From: an uncultured Gemmatimonadales bacterium
GTDB lineage: Bacteria; Gemmatimonadota; Gemmatimonadetes; Gemmatimonadales; Gemmatimonadaceae
Direction of reading: 5' to 3'
Length of the DNA: 64,000 bases
NCBI GenBank assembly: GCA_963707505.1
Contig: CAVPQB010000006.1
Span: 640,001-704,000 of the forward strand
Part shown: in pieces, positions 25,475-38,967 of the stretch
Position numbering within the stretch: the first letter of the stretch is position 1
Layout of the letters: each line of letters begins with the position of its first letter
Notes under the pieces: generated by a model
Database searches by the model: none
Told to the model about the DNA's origin: nothing
What the model saw: the letters and a program-made list of their open reading frames with translations, nothing else
Program-made: the position numbers and the translations under genes

Positions 25475-26559
<1,085 letters not shown>

Positions 26560-26563
<4 letters not shown>

Positions 26564-28188
26564 CGACAGCGACAATGACGCAGATTGGCGGAGTCTCGCG
26601 TCCTGATTCTCCTGTTTCGTTCGACGACGTGGTCGGCGAGGCGCGGAGTCTCGAGCGGAATGGCAGATGGACGGAGGCACGCTCCTGCTATGAGCGTCTA
26701 TTGGGTGACGATACACTCACCGCGGCGGCGCGCTCATCGGTATTACGCTGGATCGGCCGCACGCACGCCGAGGAAGGGAATCCGGACACAGCGTTCTCCG
26801 TGCTCGAGCGGGCCGTTGCGGCCGCGCAGGAATCAGGTGAGGTGGGCGTGGAAGCGCACGCGCTCAACGGGCTCGCGGTAATCGAGCAGACGCTGGGCAA
26901 CCTCGACCGTTCCGAGGAGTTGTATGTACGCGCGCGAAGCCGTGCCGCCGAAGCCGACGATGAGCTGCTGGTGGCGATACTGGACCAGAATCTCGCAACC
27001 GTGGCGAACATTCGCGGTAATCTGGAGCTCGCGCTCGAGTCGTATGGATCGAGCCGGAAGCGCTTCCATGCGCTGGGCCGTTCATCATACGAAGCACACG
27101 TGCTCAATAATGTCGGGATGGTGCTGACAGATCTTGGACGGTGGGAAGACGCCGAAGCGGCGTATTGCTCCGCGTGCGAAGCGTGTGCAAGCAGCGACGA
27201 CAGAGAGCTGCTGCGCAGGATCGAGGTGAATCAGGCCGAGCTCTGGATTGCACGTAACGATCTGCCCAAGGCGCGCGAGCGGTGCGAGCGGTTGCTGAAC
27301 GATGCACAGCGTGAAAAAAATGTATCAGCGCCATGGCTCGGCGAGGTTTACAAGCACTACGGCGTCGTGTGCCGGGAACAGCGTCAGCTTGATCGTGCTG
27401 AAGGTTGGTTTGCACAGGCAGCAAGGATCGCGGATAACTCGCATGACCTGCTCCTTGCCGCTGAAACGGCGCGCGAGCAGGCCGAGCTTTACTGGATTCA
27501 GGCGCGAAACAGCGACACGCTGCAGGCGCTGAACGCAGCACACGGCTGGTTTTCACAACTGCGCGCGGAGCGTGACCTCGATGCGATCGCACGGCGCAAC
27601 GGACGTCTGGAAGAGCGTTTTCTCGAAGTAGTGCGGAAGTGGGGCGAATCGATCGAAAGCAAGGACTGTTACACGCAAGGGCACTGCGTACGTGTCGCAG
27701 ACGTAGCGTGCATGCTCGCCGAGCGTATGGGGTTCGACTCGAAAACATTGTTCTGGTTCCGCATTGGCGCTCTGCTGCACGACGTTGGCAAGTTGATAGT
27801 TCCGCAGGAAGTGCTCAACAAGCCAGGCAAGCTCGATGACGATGAGTGGCGCATCATGAAGCGTCACCCCGAAGCCGGTGTCGAGCTGCTGGCCGACATC
27901 GAATTTCCGTGGGATGTGAGGCCCATGGTGCGCAACCATCACGAGCGCTGGGACGGCGCAGGATATCCGGATGAGCTGGCGGGTGAAGCGATACCGCTTT
28001 CGGCGCGCATTCTCTGCATCGCCGATGTGTACGACGCTCTCACGACGAATCGCTCGTACCGTAAGGGGTTCGATCATGAACGGGCTGTGGCCGTAATGAC
28101 CGAGAACAATGCGAACGGTCACTTCGATCCGGCGATATTCGATCTCTTCCTCGAATGGGCTGCGACGCACAACACACAGGTGGGATGA
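26560..28188 (+). CDS. TPR plus HD-GYP cyclic-dinucleotide phosphodiesterase
   Basis: N-terminal TPRs; [44 protein letters not shown] overlap with activator stop (alternative ATG 26575). Confidence 0.92.
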
Positions 28189-32579: not shown

Positions 32580-33356
32580 TCAGGGCTCGCACGCCGTCGT
32601 GAGGCGATCCACCACGCGCTCCACGAAACGCTCAATCGGCAGTGGCTCGCGGATCGCCGCAACCGAAAGCCCGCTGACAGCGATACATTGCTGCCGTAAT
32701 GCACGCTCCGAGCTCAGCCCAACCGCTCTGGCGACGTCGAGTAGGGTGAGGCTTCTGTCGGTGAGCACGTCGTAATTCCTGAGTAGTGTGAGCGCCGCCA
32801 CGAATCCTGACGGAGATGCGATTCCTGCGTTCCTGAACTGGCGCGACAGAGCCCAGCGCGTGATGCCGCAGATGCGGGCGAGCCTTTCGACCGAGTCGAT
32901 TCTGTGCCCATCGTCGCTCACATGATCGATGCAACTGCACAGCGCCGATGGGACGGTCTCAAGTCGGCGCGACAGAGCGGTCACGAGCAACTGAGCCCGC
33001 GTGGCCCGTGACTGGCGTCGCAGAATGTCAGCAAACGTCGTTGGATCGTCGTTGTATCCATAAGTGACGATCTCTCCGATGCCGAGCTCGCGAATGAGAT
33101 CGATCGATGCCTGCGCGTACTCCGGCGTGAGCAATATGTACAGTACGGTGCCGAGGTGCGCGCGAGACAGCGAGCCGGGAATGCCGCGATCGCGCTCTGC
33201 AAGCATGGGGTCCACGACAGCCACATCGGACGATCCACGCGTTACGGCATCGATGAAGTCAGCCGTACCTGATCGTATCGTCACCGATCCCGGAGGCATC
33301 ACAGCCGCGCGTGCGCGGTCGTGAAACGGTCTCCGGAGCATTGCCAGCGCTCTCAT
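32580..33356 (-). CDS. Divergent AraC-like HTH regulator
   Basis: C-terminal double HTH SVERLARICGITRWALSRQF...LLDVARAVGLSSERAL; N-terminal degenerate receiver-like segment (VAVVDP). Confidence 0.72.
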   Translation of the reverse strand: MRALAMLRRPFHDRARAAVMPPGSVTIRSGTADFIDAVTRGSSDVAVVDPMLAERDRGIPGSLSRAHLGTVLYILLTPEYAQASIDLIRELGIGEIVTYGYNDDPTTFADILRRQSRATRAQLLVTALSRRLETVPSALCSCIDHVSDDGHRIDSVERLARICGITRWALSRQFRNAGIASPSGFVAALTLLRNYDVLTDRSLTLLDVARAVGLSSERALRQQCIAVSGLSVAAIREPLPIERFVERVVDRLTTACEP

Positions 33357-33405
33357 CGAACGCCGTGCGCCCTTTGCGTCAAGAAGATCCGTCCTCGCGT
33401 GTCCC

Positions 33406-34755
33406 CTACAGTGCAGTGCTCATGGCAGCGCTCATCGGAGCGCTCGTATCGACGCCGTGTCCGGCTGCCATGATATCGAGCGACTCGGCAACGTGGCGAA
33501 TTTCAGACGGCACGCTGTCCCAGCCAATCGAAATTGCGGACGGGTTAGGCATCACATCGTCACTGACGGCGACGGTGTTCGAACGGGACCGCTCCGAACG
33601 CGGTGGTATCTCGCTGGGAGCGTTCTCCAGTGCCAGCAGGATATCACTCAGCTCTGTCTCTGCCTCGAACACAAGCTGAAAGTGCTGGTACTGATTTGCG
33701 AGCTCGATCGCCCTTTCCGCAGCCGATCTGGCCTCAGCAAGTCGGTTGAATCGCCGACATCCCTGTGCGATGAACAGCGCATATTGTGCTTGCTGGCGAG
33801 GTGTCAGTCGCTCGTCAGCGAGCTCAGCGCGGAGTGCGTCGAACCGCGGCATGCCTTCGTGATGTGCAGCGAGAAAGAACAGATTGAGCGTCGCATGACG
33901 TCTGACGTGTCTGTCGGGCGCAGCTTTCTGTACGACACGAAGCGCAGCCGATGCAACTGTGGGGAGTCCATAGTCACTGAGGAAGGATGCGAGATCGACC
34001 AGCGTCTGGTACTTGAGCTCGTCGTCGTCGTCCAACGTATCGAGGATACCGAACGCGAGGGAGATCGCCTGTTCGTACTCGCCACTCATGTTCGCGACCC
34101 CTGCGAGTGCAAGGGTGACTCTCGGAACGACCGAGGGGCACGATAGACGCGCCCGCTTGCCAATACCCGTGAGACGTAGTCGCGCCGCCTGCAGATTGCC
34201 GCGGCTCCACAGCAGGTTCGCCTCGCCGATCTGCGCGCGGAACGCGATGGACAGGTCGCCCGCTTCCCGGCCAAGCTGGGATGCGCGACGGTAGGCGATC
34301 TGCGCCATCTCCCAGTCTGCACACATGCGGTACGCGCGTCCCATCAGCAAGCGCGACTCCGCCGCGAGCCACGTCTCGCCGTCGAGCTCGGTATCCATGC
34401 CTGCGAGTGCGAATACCGTTGCGGCCATTGCCCACTCGCCCTCGCTGACAAGCGCCTGTCCGTACATCAGAAGCGAAGTGTACGTCGCCTTTCGTCCCAC
34501 GCGGATCGGTCCTGCACTCTCCCAGAAGTGAAGTGCGCAGATCATCGCTTCGAGCGCCGTGCGCAGCTTCGGCGAAGCGTCGATGCCTGCCACATCGGCT
34601 TCGACCTTGCGGAGGGCATCGAGCTGGAACGAATTCATGCCGTTCGTCTTGACGCTGTCGTAAATCTGCAGGATGGTGAATCCTGCGGCCGTGCGCGCGA
34701 ATTCAGCATCCGATCGTGCTGTAGCGAGATGCTGGAGGAACGAGATCTCTGTCAT
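33406..34755 (-). CDS. Divergent TPR-like helical repeat protein
   Basis: Ala-rich periodic helices (LLMGRAYRMCADWEMAQIAYRRA, IGEANLLWSRGNLQAA, LAGVANMSGEYEQA); ATGA overlap with upstream regulator. Confidence 0.7.
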   Translation of the reverse strand: MTEISFLQHLATARSDAEFARTAAGFTILQIYDSVKTNGMNSFQLDALRKVEADVAGIDASPKLRTALEAMICALHFWESAGPIRVGRKATYTSLLMYGQALVSEGEWAMAATVFALAGMDTELDGETWLAAESRLLMGRAYRMCADWEMAQIAYRRASQLGREAGDLSIAFRAQIGEANLLWSRGNLQAARLRLTGIGKRARLSCPSVVPRVTLALAGVANMSGEYEQAISLAFGILDTLDDDDELKYQTLVDLASFLSDYGLPTVASAALRVVQKAAPDRHVRRHATLNLFFLAAHHEGMPRFDALRAELADERLTPRQQAQYALFIAQGCRRFNRLAEARSAAERAIELANQYQHFQLVFEAETELSDILLALENAPSEIPPRSERSRSNTVAVSDDVMPNPSAISIGWDSVPSEIRHVAESLDIMAAGHGVDTSAPMSAAMSTAL

Positions 34756-35657
34756 GGCTTGGTTACCGGTTCGCCGGACGCCTTGAGGCGTACGTGTCGG
34801 GGGCGAGGTCTGCCGTGGATGAGTGTCAGCGACGGCTTGGCATCTTCTGCGGGACTGCCGGAAACGTTCGATTTCTGACGCGGCTTCCGTTCCGTCAGCC
34901 GCAGCGCGAGTGTGTCCGCCGCCTCGGCGGCCCTGAGCGGTCGAGCGCGGAGCTTTCCGCTCGTGGTGTCGAGGAGCAAGGTGAATTGCGCATCCATCGT
35001 TCTCTGTGACTTGTATCCAAGCAGCGAGGCGATGGTGGTGAGCGGAATGCGAGATCTGGTAATCGTTCTGTAGGCAGACGTGAGGTGCGTCGCCTCGACC
35101 AGTTTTCTCGCCGACACGAAGCCAGCATCGGCGATATAGCGATCCATGCTGCGCCGCGGCAGCGAGACGGCCGCCGACAGCGCGTCGGGGGAATGGGGGC
35201 CATCGCCGGTGCGGAACATCGCGAGCAGTCTGTCGCGGATGACAGGCGGTAGGAGATTCAGGTTGCTATCCAGCCTGGACACGAGCGCGGTCCAGAACTC
35301 AGCGTCAGGCGTGAGAAGGAGGGCGCGCTCGAGCAACGAGCGCTCGTTCGCGGTACCTCTGAAGACAAAGCGGGCAGGGGTTCGTTGCGCCAGGATCACC
35401 GAGCTTTCGAGCGCTGCGGTGCTTACCGAACTGAAGGCGACCACGGGCCGCGGAAACTGCGCAAGGCTGGCCGCGATCGACTGCGCGATGCCCGCAGTAA
35501 CGAGTGCTGGATCGAATACGAGGCAGTCGTCATTTGGAAAGGCGAGCGCGGCCAGAAGCTGACGCGTGTCCGGGATGGAGTCGATGATACCGTATCCACC
35601 CAGGGCTGCGTACACGTAGCCCATCGCCTGTGGCGCCAGAAATACGATGTACCTCAA
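34752..35657 (-). CDS. Divergent AraC-like HTH regulator
   Basis: SPDALSAAVSLPRRSMDRY..AGF...LTTIASLLGYKSQRTMDAQF; N-terminal CLVFDP parallels 32580-33356. Confidence 0.72.
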   Translation of the reverse strand: MRYIVFLAPQAMGYVYAALGGYGIIDSIPDTRQLLAALAFPNDDCLVFDPALVTAGIAQSIAASLAQFPRPVVAFSSVSTAALESSVILAQRTPARFVFRGTANERSLLERALLLTPDAEFWTALVSRLDSNLNLLPPVIRDRLLAMFRTGDGPHSPDALSAAVSLPRRSMDRYIADAGFVSARKLVEATHLTSAYRTITRSRIPLTTIASLLGYKSQRTMDAQFTLLLDTTSGKLRARPLRAAEAADTLALRLTERKPRQKSNVSGSPAEDAKPSLTLIHGRPRPRHVRLKASGEPVTKP

Positions 35658-35756
35658 TCAAGCCCCGCTGATGCACCTGCTGTCTGCGACATGGCACTCC
35701 TTCCCCGAGCGACGAGAACCCTTCAATAAGGTAGCGTCCGCCCGGTGCCGCCGAAA

Positions 35757-35792
35757 TGCGATTTTCGGCCAAGCACTGCGATTTCCGGCCAA
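35757..35792. promoter_or_regulatory. 16-bp direct repeat pair (period 20), candidate AraC-type operator
   Basis: TGCGATTTTCGGCCAA-gcac-TGCGATTTCCGGCCAA, 15/16 identical, 100 nt upstream of the AraC-like gene. Confidence 0.55.
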
Positions 35793-35811
35793 CCCGGGAA
35801 CGTGGGGTGAG

Positions 35812-35840
35812 CTGGTCGTAGCCTGGTCGTAGCCTGGTCG
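35812..35840. repeat. 11-bp tandem repeat, about 2.6 copies
   Basis: CTGGTCGTAGC CTGGTCGTAGC CTGGTCG. Confidence 0.8.
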
Positions 35841-35901
35841 GGGGGGGCCAGCCGCGAGCGGGTGCCTGGACCGCAGGCACCCGCTCAAATCCACAGTCCG
35901 G

Positions 35902-36090
35902 CTAGGGGCGTGCGACCTTGACGATGGCGGCAGACTGGGAGGTGCTGTCGGAGCCGCAGCGATCCCAGCCCTGGGTTCCGCCGCCGCTGCACAGGGCGTT
36001 GGAACGGGGGGCGGTCGGTTCTGCGCAAGCGACAGCGAGCGCGGCTAGGACTGCACCAAGGATGGTGATGTATCTGGTCGTACTGCGCAC
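35902..36090 (-). CDS. Small secreted lipopeptide (62 aa)
   Basis: GGAG RBS; basic N-terminus, hydrophobic core, lipobox AVAC, then AEPTAP...CSGGGTQGWDRC. Confidence 0.72.
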   Translation of the reverse strand: MRSTTRYITILGAVLAALAVACAEPTAPRSNALCSGGGTQGWDRCGSDSTSQSAAIVKVARP

Positions 36091-36427
36091 ATGATCTCCG
36101 GCAAGGGGGTTGAGCAGGGAGATTTACAGGGAGTTTCCCCAGTACGAAATGCTCGTTTGCGCCAATTACCTGCGCTTTTGTGCGGGTCGCTCCGATTGGC
36201 TGGAATTCGCAGTTCGTGGCTTGAATGCGCACTTGTCCGATCGCTGTCGCCGAGCAAATGTATGCTGTATGGCTGCGCTATGCGGAATCGACCGGACAAT
36301 GGCATGTGGCATCGCTCGAAGAATGAACTCAGCCAAGCGCCTTAAGGAATGGGCGGGGTCACATGCCAGTTTCCGCCTGCGAAGCCGGATCTTAGCCACT
36401 TTCCATCAGCATTGAACACCATAAGTC

Positions 36428-36649
36428 ATGCTCGACTCAGTTGTTACGTTTGATGTCGCCTCCCGGGTACGCGAGCTCGAGCTATCGATTGCTCGGCGCG
36501 TTCGCCAGGAATTGCGCCCCTACATTTGCGACGAGACGGAGTTGGAGCGCGCCACGAGCGAAGTCCTGATGATCAGCAGGGACTACGCCGGATCATTCCA
36601 TGCGATCAATGATCGGGCGCGTATAAGGCGGGAGCGGGACGTGGAGTAG
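36428..36649 (+). CDS. Small hypothetical protein
   Basis: 73-aa charged helical ORF with ATG start, co-oriented with the TonB receptor. Confidence 0.45.
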   Translation: MLDSVVTFDVASRVRELELSIARRVRQELRPYICDETELERATSEVLMISRDYAGSFHAINDRARIRRERDVE

Positions 36650-36693: not shown

Positions 36694-38967
36694 ATGAAGG
36701 CCGCCATTACGCACGTCACCCTATCACAGATTGTACGAAGGAGTCACGGCCACCCTGCTGCGCATTCGGCGGCGATTGTCCTGGCGGTGTCGACGCTCTT
36801 TCTCATTCCCGTTACGGCGCAAGCGCAGCGGCGCACGTCCGCGCGCGATACGATCCCGTCCGATAGCTCCGCAAGACACAATGCGCATGCGGATACGGCT
36901 CAGCGGCTAAGGGGTGAGGTAATCACCGGTACGCGTCTCTCTCAGGCGGCTGACCGCACCGCTGCGCGTGTCGATCATCCGGACCTGACCAACGTGCCGC
37001 CCGGCCCTGCGGCTGCGGCCGACATACTCGCGCGGCTTCCCGGTGTGAGCAGCATCGATGATCAGGGCAGCCGCATCCAGCCAACGCTCACGCTCCGTGG
37101 ATTCACGCTCTCACCCGTCGTTGGCGTCCCGCAGGGAGTGAGCGTCTTTCTCGACGGCGTGCGAATCAACGAGCCGGATGCGCAGGAGCTGAACTTCGAT
37201 CTGATCCCGATGGAAGCGGTAACGAGCGCTTCGTTGATTCGCGGCCCGGCAACGCTTTTCGGCAAGAATACACTCGCTGGCGCACTGCTACTCACCACCG
37301 AGCGCGGCGATACGACGCCGCACGCATCGGCAACAATTGAAGACGGTGCATTCGGCTTCCGCAGCGCCACAGCAACGGCGAGCGGCGTCGCACCTGCACT
37401 TGGCGGGATCGACGGTTACATCATGGGTCGCGCGAGCAACGAGCGCGGCTGGCGCGATGCTACGCAGGCGCGGTCGCGAATGCTCTTCGCCAACATCGGT
37501 AAGAAGACTGATGCAAGTGATGTCACGCTAACCGCAATGTACGCGCACGACGCAGCATTTCTCGCGGGCTCCCTGCCGGAAAGCTGGATTACCGTGGATC
37601 CACAGGCGAATTATACCGACGGCGATTTCTTCGAACCAGAATTGCTTCATCTGGCGCTTCGCGGCGAGCGTGCTCTCTCACTGGGCGCAATACGCGCGAA
37701 TCTGTTCTTTCGCCGCAATAACGTTCAACAGTTCAACGCCAACATAGATGCGCCGAGTACACGTGCGTTCGTGGATAACAGATCTGCTGGCGGAACGGTG
37801 GAATGGTCGGTGCCGACGCACATCGGACGCCATGATCTCGCGTTCACACTGGGTTCGGAGTACAGCAGGAACGACGTGGATTATCACATCTTCGATGAGA
37901 AGACTTCCGCAGCTGCTGACTTGCCAACTGATTGCGACCAGATGTCCGGGTTGTGCGATAAGGTTCATGTTCCGGAAGATGACGCGTCGCTGTATGCACA
38001 GGGAATGCTGGCGGTATCTTCAAAGCTGTCGCTGACGGTGGCTGCGCGAGCGGACTATGTGCGCATTCCGTTCCGCGATCTGCGGGATCCGTCCAACGAC
38101 GGAACCAGTGTCTTTCGCCAGATGTCGCCGCGTATCGGAGCAACGTACCAGCTCGATGCGCGCACGAGTGCGTATGCGTCTGTGGGCACGGGCTTTCGCG
38201 CGCCTGCTGCGCTCGAGCTCGCCTGCGCGGATGTGAATGCACCGTGCGCGCTTCCGTCTGCGCTCGGCGACGACCCTCCGCTCGAGCCGGTTACCGTCCG
38301 CAGCTACGAAGTTGGCTTGAGTCGGGAGTTCGCGCACGAGGCGCGATTCGGGGTCAGCGCATACCGGACCGACGTGCGGGACGAGATTGTGTTTGTCGCG
38401 TCGAGCGTTACAGCGGGCTTCTTTCAGAACATCCCGCGCACGCGCAGGCAGGGGATCGAGATTACCGGTGAAGCAGGCCTCGGTGCCGGCTTCACCCTCG
38501 ACGCATCGTATAATTATCTCAACTCGACGTACGAGAGCACTGTCGCGCTCGCGTCGGAACTGGCCGGCAATGTGGTGCATCCGGGAGACAAATTTCCATT
38601 GTCGCCCGACAATCAGGCGAGCTTCTCCATCCAGAACACGCGCGCATTTCGCACTTCGGTTCTGCATGCACAGCTATCGATCCGGGGCGTTTCGAGTCAG
38701 TTTCTGCGCGGTGACGAGGCGAATCGCGAGCGGCAGCTCCCGGGCTACGCGACTACGGATGCGCGGGTTGAGTGGCAGGCGCATGAGTTCACTTTATCCG
38801 GCTATGTAACCAACCTGCTGGATCGGAGTTACGATACCTTCGGGGTTTTTGGTGAGAATCCGAAAGGGCCGTTGGGCGGTACACCTCCCGCCGCGCCGAC
38901 GCCGGAGCGGTTTCTTACACCGGCATATCCCCGCGCACTGACGGTGTCGTTGGCGATCCACATGTGA
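36694..38967 (+). CDS. TonB-dependent receptor
   Basis: Signal peptide, EVITGTR TonB box, plug LARLPGV...LRGF...VFLDGVRIN...IRGPATLFG, GFRAP, VTNLLD. Confidence 0.92.
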   Translation: MKAAITHVTLSQIVRRSHGHPAAHSAAIVLAVSTLFLIPVTAQAQRRTSARDTIPSDSSARHNAHADTAQRLRGEVITGTRLSQAADRTAARVDHPDLTNVPPGPAAAADILARLPGVSSIDDQGSRIQPTLTLRGFTLSPVVGVPQGVSVFLDGVRINEPDAQELNFDLIPMEAVTSASLIRGPATLFGKNTLAGALLLTTERGDTTPHASATIEDGAFGFRSATATASGVAPALGGIDGYIMGRASNERGWRDATQARSRMLFANIGKKTDASDVTLTAMYAHDAAFLAGSLPESWITVDPQANYTDGDFFEPELLHLALRGERALSLGAIRANLFFRRNNVQQFNANIDAPSTRAFVDNRSAGGTVEWSVPTHIGRHDLAFTLGSEYSRNDVDYHIFDEKTSAAADLPTDCDQMSGLCDKVHVPEDDASLYAQGMLAVSSKLSLTVAARADYVRIPFRDLRDPSNDGTSVFRQMSPRIGATYQLDARTSAYASVGTGFRAPAALELACADVNAPCALPSALGDDPPLEPVTVRSYEVGLSREFAHEARFGVSAYRTDVRDEIVFVASSVTAGFFQNIPRTRRQGIEITGEAGLGAGFTLDASYNYLNSTYESTVALASELAGNVVHPGDKFPLSPDNQASFSIQNTRAFRTSVLHAQLSIRGVSSQFLRGDEANRERQLPGYATTDARVEWQAHEFTLSGYVTNLLDRSYDTFGVFGENPKGPLGGTPPAAPTPERFLTPAYPRALTVSLAIHM

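Follow-up and report, generated by a model that had tools for sequence, protein, structure and literature searches.

A lipopeptide, TPR and AraC gene cassette of Gemmatimonadota as a candidate peptide-signalling system

We analysed a window of 64,000 nucleotides from an uncultured Gemmatimonadales bacterium, whose genome is called G000 here, for a cassette on the minus strand that joins a small lipoprotein-type peptide to a tetratricopeptide repeat (TPR) protein and two AraC-type regulators, A1 and A2. This cassette is a real, phylum-wide regulatory gene set that has apparently not been described before; named homologues belong to Gemmatimonadaceae or Gemmatimonadales. In the list of open reading frames (ORFs) the order is peptide, A1, TPR, A2, with all four genes co-directional. 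The peptide gene (35902-36090, minus strand) encodes 62 aa from a GTG start with GGAG 5 nt upstream, and carries a lipobox, ..LAVA-C22. A1 (34752-35657, minus strand; 301 aa, TTG start) and A2 (32580-33356, minus strand; 258 aa) each combine an atypical receiver domain with an AraC/XylS double helix-turn-helix (HTH), and the TPR gene between them (33406-34755, minus strand; 449 aa) overlaps A1 by 4 nt at ATGA. A preliminary description of this DNA had placed a 62-aa lipobox peptide, two AraC-like genes and a TPR-like protein here, which ORFs, Pfam matches and folds confirm, and had proposed translational coupling of the TPR gene, which agrees with the ATGA overlap. Its 'divergent' AraC-like regulator is divergent in sequence, not in orientation. 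Directly after the peptide stop lies a perfect 13-bp inverted repeat (35856-35886), with hairpins visible by eye at the same position in relatives. The repeat is likely a terminator that would split the peptide transcript from an A1-TPR-A2 operon, a function that we infer.

The window TPR protein matches 33 of 61 related genomes, and a profile built from 41 TPR sequences matches 127 of 301 phylum genomes (about 40%) at E≤1e-20; both tallies include one unpublished genome that enters no other result. At E≤1e-30 the profile recovers 707 representatives at 50% identity, and an Atlas search returned exclusively Gemmatimonadota among clusters at 0.96 or higher, with one mostly Bacteroidota cluster at 0.94. 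The order seen in the window is a genus-level arrangement. Outside the genus, the peptide gene is usually convergent on the TPR gene and divergent from a single AraC gene, and at a few loci an AraC gene precedes the TPR gene, again with a convergent peptide gene. The preliminary description would have been refuted if homologous TPR/AraC loci had no small exported ORF next to them; most of them do have one. A lipobox rule was fixed on 34 training loci and then applied to 96 held-out loci from the 127-genome list, from which the training loci and most truncated TPR matches had been left out. At 85 of the 94 loci with enough flank the rule picked out a lipobox ORF that converges on the TPR gene and is no more than 450 nt away, and three of the nine misses do show a small lipobox ORF by eye; the background for the rule is 12 of 1590 long ORFs of G000. 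An AraC gene is present at 85 of 93 held-out loci. A further set of 22 loci (26 minus four truncated ones; two of the 22 recur from the training loci) yielded a peptide in 21. Together, the peptide gene stays beside the TPR gene in about 90% of loci over three gene orders, and tree distances of TPR and AraC proteins correlate strongly (rho 0.86, n=108).

A1 and A2 share 26% identity over 105 aa and form one clade with the solo copies of the genus (support 0.977), in line with the paralogy already noted. Sequence comparison thus identifies the two-AraC layout as a genus-level duplication, and since most of the phylum has one AraC gene, the ancestral unit is one peptide, one TPR protein and one AraC protein. 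A heterodimer or antagonistic pair of AraC proteins, as first proposed, is therefore not a core feature. A test for hybrid A2/A1 sites gave a weak result, with the proximal unit at the peptide promoter more A1-like at six of nine loci, the window not among them. G000 itself holds a single TPR protein of this type and several solo A1/A2-like regulators. At L068 (G000:C6:269636-270293) lies an A1-like gene split over two frames and apparently broken. An expanded locus in G012 (L044:4977-10780) combines a single peptide gene with three AraC-like genes and two TPR genes, one of which is divided between two ORFs. No TPR relative was found in viral contigs with one query, and no AraC-TPR fusion was seen among longer proteins (a weak test) or among 148 representatives. 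A literature search found no description of the cassette; subscription papers and supplements, including that of RRNPP_detector, which could bear on novelty, fell outside it.

The 62-aa precursor consists of a signal peptide (residues 1-21), the lipobox Cys22 (36025-36027), a T-x-P tether and a variable tail, and has no Pfam or NCBIfam match. By our own rule (basic N-region, hydrophobic stretch, lipobox) the export signal is predicted to be of the signal peptidase II (SPII) type. Values of pN/pS against three close relatives are 0.20-0.32 for the peptide, like those of A1 (0.20-0.22), so by this measure the ORF is coding and under purifying selection. Residues C22, T26, P28, C34, G36-G38, W42 and D43 are invariant in 12 genus homologues. 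The candidate signal of the window is the segment Cys34-Cys45 (35989-35991 and 35956-35958, minus strand), a predicted disulfide ring that encloses SGGGTQGWDR and in which GGG and WD are invariant in the 12 genus sequences.

Across 116 precursors the mature parts measure 18-66 aa (median 24 aa), and the tether is followed by a short motif. Beyond the lipobox Cys, 83 precursors have at least two further cysteines and 33 have none, whereas a single further cysteine is never seen; the spacing between the cysteines is 6-11 residues in 82 of the 83. Because the cysteines are paired at this spacing and a single extra one is never seen, a disulfide ring probably forms outside the cytoplasm. Five of the 116 precursors contain a duplicated short motif, with three copies of HTIGSGN in L173 and up to six of SGYNGSGT in L158. 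Several pheromones repeated within one propeptide are known for Phr (available part of PMC11343458). Tails are conserved inside a clade, their similarity dropping from 0.8 to 0.2 with falling TPR identity, and co-resident cassettes carry different tails in all 13 genomes with at least two peptides called.

Tandem promoter boxes with a fixed spacing are a new finding beyond the preliminary description. The box of the peptide gene (36151-36185, minus strand; units 36172-36185 and 36151-36164) has a period of 21 and the hexamer TAAATC at +24, where the closest relatives have TAATCT. Phylum-wide matrices rank it first in the genome, at 23.2 and 26.4 bits against shuffled-contig maxima of 16.4 and 11.6. 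The A1-TPR-A2 promoter (35728-35791, minus strand) has a period-20 box (units 35778-35791 and 35758-35771) and a -10-like element, TACCTT (35728-35733, minus strand), 24 nt past the second unit. With a period-20 matrix made from eight relatives, the window excluded, this box is the top G000 hit at 38.6 bits (shuffled genome maximum 19.0). In the regions before 112 peptide genes, a motif present in two copies scores highest at period 21, with 24.3 bits; the same regions give 14.0-17.5 bits at periods 18-24 and about 7 in three shuffles. In 48 of 111 cases TAnnnT follows the second copy at a distance of exactly 24 nt, and any other offset accounts for at most two. Where the genes stand in the common order, the box adjoins the start of the divergent AraC gene or runs into it. 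From sequence, A1 is predicted to bind the period-20 box and the boxes are presumably bound by A1 and A2; their presence at peptide and regulator promoters supports a putative autoregulatory loop. Sigma-54 promoters have the spacing GG-N10-GC. We rejected a sigma-54 reading of the boxes, which none of the three window boxes fits and for which many relatives show TGTC, TGCC or TGAT. A generic sigma-70 scan gave nothing above chance.

A third tandem box (36197-36230, plus strand; units 36197-36210 and 36217-36230; period 20, 30.4 bits) is an inverted copy of the A1 box, is kept in relatives, and has at +24 the hexamer CAAATG, which does not fit TAnnnT. It faces a 73-aa gene (36428-36649, plus strand) of unassigned family, divergent from the peptide gene and overlooked earlier, which is a predicted regulon member. 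This gene was seen at 10 of 13 genus loci (L031-L043), of which L038 and L040 stop short of its position, and its pN/pS is 0.10-0.14; an Atlas search with the protein gave no usable match. The period-20 matrix finds four strong sites in G000, namely the A1 promoter, C2:137295 (34.0 bits, before a 430-aa lipoprotein gene), C6:246919 (32.3 bits, adjoining an Rhs-like gene) and the site at the 73-aa gene.

The regulators match Pfam HTH_18 below curated cut-offs (A2 E 3.5e-7, A1 E 1.4e-4). The top PDB match of the AraC profile is AdpA (E 6.4e-17), with SoxS and MarA also matched, and the helical pattern of the A2 model (pLDDT 93.6) likewise backs the C-terminal double HTH typical of AraC/XylS proteins. 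Foldseek with the A2 model returned nothing at E≤0.001; a wider fold search aligned 112 residues of its N-domain to the NtrX receiver (Z 14.0, rmsd 2.5). Canonical receivers have an acidic pair after beta-1, an Asp after beta-3, a Thr/Ser after beta-4 and a Lys after beta-5. Among 64 aligned proteins D49 is present in 62 and the Thr/Ser in 45, and the acidic pair and the Lys are absent. The response-regulator fold is thus present without its full residue set, as the 'degenerate receiver-like N-terminus' of the preliminary description had it. Because the acidic pair and Lys are missing, control by a kinase is unlikely and a protein partner plausible.

The TPR protein matches Pfam TPR models below curated cut-offs (best E 1.8e-4), shows no signal peptide and has relatives mostly of 400-450 aa. 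In its predicted model (pLDDT 87.9), four helices at the N-terminus lead into about seven TPR hairpins, and a capping helix closes the fold. The fold search puts LGN on top (Z 21.8); bacterial matches are Rap phi105 (8rte, Z 19.6, rmsd 5.5, 300 aligned), Rap pLS20 (6t3h, Z 18.3), NprR (Z 18.1) and RapH-Spo0F (Z 17.7). In the sequence profile search NprR (E 0.024) and RapH (E 0.028) fall far behind LGN (E 1.6e-11) and consensus TPRs. These matches show a solenoid of the kind that binds peptides and are no sign of common descent. All 116 of 116 proteins have Arg143, and 103 have D254; by the repeat register, under a rule that we take to hold for TPRs, both are predicted to face the groove. The protein is predicted to be a cytoplasmic peptide receptor and AraC partner. 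A complex prediction of TPR (1-432) and peptide (23-62) scored 0.03 against a mark of 0.32 with controls not folded, and is of no evidential use. One TPR relative, P0112, is in frame with an extracytoplasmic function (ECF) sigma factor, three of five cluster members being long and two short; this fusion is a hint that the TPR module gates transcription factors, or may reflect a lost stop codon.

The cassette resembles several known systems. As in Rap-Phr, a small Sec-type propeptide lies beside a TPR protein of 250-500 aa without an HTH; a helical N-terminal extension, predicted control of a response-regulator-like partner and motif repeats in some propeptides are also shared. In contrast to Rap-Phr, the phylum here is diderm, the precursor has a lipobox throughout and a Cys-paired ring, and the partner is a linked, encoded pseudo-receiver AraC protein. 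Sequence homology is not convincing (the RapH E-value given above), so membership by descent is not supported. The RRNPP signature comprises five criteria, with Sec/SPI at a strict level and Sec/SPII admitted at a relaxed level (available part of PMC10075063). Propeptide size (62 aa within 10-100 aa), receptor length (449 aa within 250-500 aa) and receptor TPRs (sub-cut-off Pfam, model and fold search) agree with it, and the predicted SPII-type secretion fits the relaxed level only. Peptide and TPR genes are separated by A1 in the window, and are adjacent at the 85 of 94 held-out loci. Most of the signature is therefore present at the relaxed, lipoprotein level. In the part of PMC9765709 available, Sec/SPII propeptides are a minority in RRNPPA (211 of 2734) and the family is described in Firmicutes.

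Similarly, the ExsA-ExsD-ExsC-ExsE system of Pseudomonas aeruginosa has an AraC activator with two sites 21 bp apart, one overlapping the -35 element; it also includes an anti-activator and a small protein that is exported, and its regulon is a secretion system (available part of PMC12648661). Here, by contrast, the small protein has the signal of a lipoprotein and a TPR solenoid is the candidate anti-activator. The N-domain of the AraC protein folds as a receiver, and a type II system is targeted, in a single genus. AdpA is the closest solved HTH relative, and the A1 box begins like its consensus TGGCSNGWWY (available part of PMC3372375); AdpA differs from our regulators, which have a receiver-like N-domain and a strict tandem box with fixed -10 spacing. 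LGN/Pins is the best match of the TPR part in sequence and fold and, according to PDB entry titles, binds extended peptides in its groove, but the similarity is that of generic repeats without shared context.

A pattern search of ten genus genomes found 26 box sites against none in the reversed control, with two genomes lacking any. Four of these sites precede a GspE-type ATPase gene heading a type II secretion system (T2SS) operon with a sigma-54 activator at its end (operon content from Pfam matches in G003; in G015 the contig ends within the operon). A direct gspE search gave eight loci in seven of 22 genus genomes: seven of 13 with this cassette type and none of nine without, in a sample with many incomplete genomes and three close kin. 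A box stands before all eight (15.5-36.7 bits), with TAnnnT at +24 in seven, and four of the eight were found independently of the pattern search. Rhs-type genes lie near five of the eight. All three Rhs genes examined, one of them in G000, have a sigma-54-type promoter and lack the box, suggesting a two-step cascade in which the box would control the T2SS operon with its sigma-54 activator, and the latter the Rhs genes.

Based on these results we propose, as slightly the better bet, that the gene set is a self-amplifying peptide-signalling circuit analogous to Rap-Phr and acting through pseudo-receiver AraC proteins. Two AraC monomers on boxes 20-21 bp apart, immediately upstream of the -10 element, would switch on the peptide gene together with the operon that encodes them and the rest of the regulon. 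The peptide would be exported via Sec, lipidated at Cys22 and oxidised to the Cys34-Cys45 ring. A protease would then release the ring, which would build up outside the cell, return through an importer and bind the TPR groove. The TPR protein, otherwise probably holding the non-phosphorylatable receiver domain of the AraC protein inactive, would let go and so close a positive loop. Release, re-import, TPR binding and the sign of TPR action are the inferred steps; the sign is the least certain, an anti-activator being modestly preferred to a co-activator. Within the genus, the output would be the T2SS operon, its sigma-54 activator and then nearby Rhs proteins with Sec signals, likely serving density-dependent interbacterial competition. 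A bolder version, which we offer tentatively and at somewhat short of even chances, is a phylum-wide diderm peptide quorum sensing in which TPR receptors of the cytoplasm, gating pseudo-receiver AraC activators, read hundreds of disulfide-ring or repeat codes that derive by cleavage from minimal lipoproteins. Its origin would be independent of, or very distant from, Firmicute RRNPP systems, and in the genus it would switch on T2SS and Rhs competition.

Linkage, selection and the boxes at peptide and regulator promoters partly support the Rap-Phr-like interpretation that had first been suggested, with peptide-TPR binding its presumed part, and several observations weigh against the proposed circuit. 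The fold match is generic, as eukaryotic LGN outranks Rap and Z-scores tie with unrelated TPR proteins. The T-x-P tether, present in 110 of 116 precursors, is uninformative on signalling because it is a general lipoprotein motif here: of 166 loosely called lipoproteins of G000, 41 carry, shortly behind the lipobox Cys, a T/S/A-x-P tether, which is possibly a phylum-specific sorting motif. The suggested check of peptide/TPR co-variation did not rise above its null (partial r 0.137, reached by 52 of 200 matched random position sets), with groove positions taken from the repeat register, doubtful in repeat 6, and not from coordinates. No protease or importer linked to the cassette was found. The cytoplasm would reduce the disulfide of a ring, and re-import is complicated by a lipid anchor and two membranes. 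Box sequence follows the HTH recognition helix by eye, a covariation confounded by descent, and the related genomes are not independent. As to the regulon, the examined Rhs genes have no box of their own, the T2SS operon was not found in the G000 assembly (83% complete), and five other genera show the cassette box alone. Ten genomes of a second family have mixed targets, with 0-9 extra sites each (control 0-1) before genes for exported proteins, kinases, response regulators and others as judged by eye with no family scan. T2SS is not a phylum-wide target.

Some of these observations suit a private envelope or export monitor, in which the parts would all work inside a single cell: the precursor would bind the TPR protein only if its export, lipidation or oxidation in the periplasm is impaired, or a fragment from the periplasm would be recycled inward, coupling the AraC protein to envelope or secretion state and not to cell density by a partner switch like ExsE-ExsC-ExsD-ExsA. 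The ExsA-like box geometry, the secretion operon as a target, a lipid anchor that would retain the peptide and the lack of a linked importer speak for it. However, clade-specific diversified tails, tandem copies and differing co-resident tails suit identity codes better than a stress gauge, and 15 genomes outside the genus have no T2SS target, so we regard such a monitor as unlikely. The negative test of groove-tail covariation speaks for a reading in which the lipopeptide is an output, either a surface tag or an antagonistic lipopeptide under AraC control, with the TPR protein sensing another ligand or protein. The peptide gene is the best box site, and exported proteins are also the products of the other boxed genes, further small Cys-rich peptides (L205) and lipoproteins among them. 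Those other targets are scattered and lineage-specific, whereas the peptide stays with the TPR protein as described and every extra cassette keeps its own peptide; we think this reading quite improbable.

Enterococcal sex pheromones are cleaved lipoprotein signal peptides, and by analogy the signal here could be the cleaved signal peptide with the tail as a passenger. All members have a lipobox, although by definition, and similarity in the signal region follows TPR identity about as closely as similarity in the tail (rho 0.35 vs 0.36), but the genus-invariant residues lie in tether and ring, not in the signal, and paired cysteines and tandem repeats sit in the tail, leaving this at a very low probability. 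A translational leader in which co-translational export gates the downstream gene, for which CutF is a precedent (available part of PMC9973294), fits the window in that the peptide gene precedes A1 on the same strand and its product has a pair of cysteines and ends in Pro. Leaders like CutF sit immediately before the gene that they control and share its transcript, whereas at most loci the peptide gene is convergent on the TPR gene with nothing co-oriented behind it, and in the window a hairpin and a separate promoter stand between it and A1. Gene order largely excludes a CutF-like leader, which we consider next to negligible.

The RRNPP literature assigns gene-encoded peptide signals with cytoplasmic TPR receptors to Firmicutes, and to Proteobacteria and Actinobacteria small molecules made by enzymes (available part of PMC10075063). 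If true, the proposed circuit would bring peptide communication to a diderm phylum about whose regulation little is known, in 127 of 301 genomes, and add a new mode of AraC control, by a TPR protein on a pseudo-receiver, with a first predicted regulon. The data supply more than 100 receptor-peptide-regulator-box sets for rebuilding in a laboratory host, and if growth or secretion of Gemmatimonadota needs such signals, synthetic peptides would be a direct tool for study.

A TonB-dependent receptor gene (36694-38967, plus strand) lies directly downstream of the 73-aa gene. It is missing at that place in the three closest relatives and is probably a recent insertion; as it is not syntenic, it was ruled out as the importer. 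Another TPR-containing signalling pair near the cassette (25475-28188, plus strand) consists of a sigma-54 activator without a receiver match followed by a TPR-HD-GYP protein.

Additional observations concern the Rhs loci and other boxed genes. An identical sigma-54-type promoter word and an upstream palindromic element precede Rhs genes at G000:C6:420893, L212:6901 and L292:7780; these Rhs proteins start with Sec signals and are candidates for T2SS-exported polymorphic toxins. A solo A1 paralogue lies within an Rhs locus at L066:5073-5912 (G000:C6:429072-429911) and likewise in L212 and L290. In G015 and G016 a solo A1 paralogue is divergent from gspE with boxes in both directions, and in G000 an Rhs fragment and an insertion element take the place of its gspE side. 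A box with TACCTT precedes two genes for small exported Cys-rich peptides and a thioredoxin-like gene, assigned by eye, in G009 (L213:4700-6135) and also in L205, possibly a bacteriocin-like cluster within the regulon. The strongly boxed 430-aa lipoprotein (L180:7838-9130; G000:C2:135837-137129) has no Pfam match and a hydrophobic C-terminal hairpin, and is followed by a small membrane-protein gene, the pair looking toxin-immunity-like by eye. Finally, three second-family genomes (L239, L249 and L253) share one histidine-kinase-like gene after a period-21 box.

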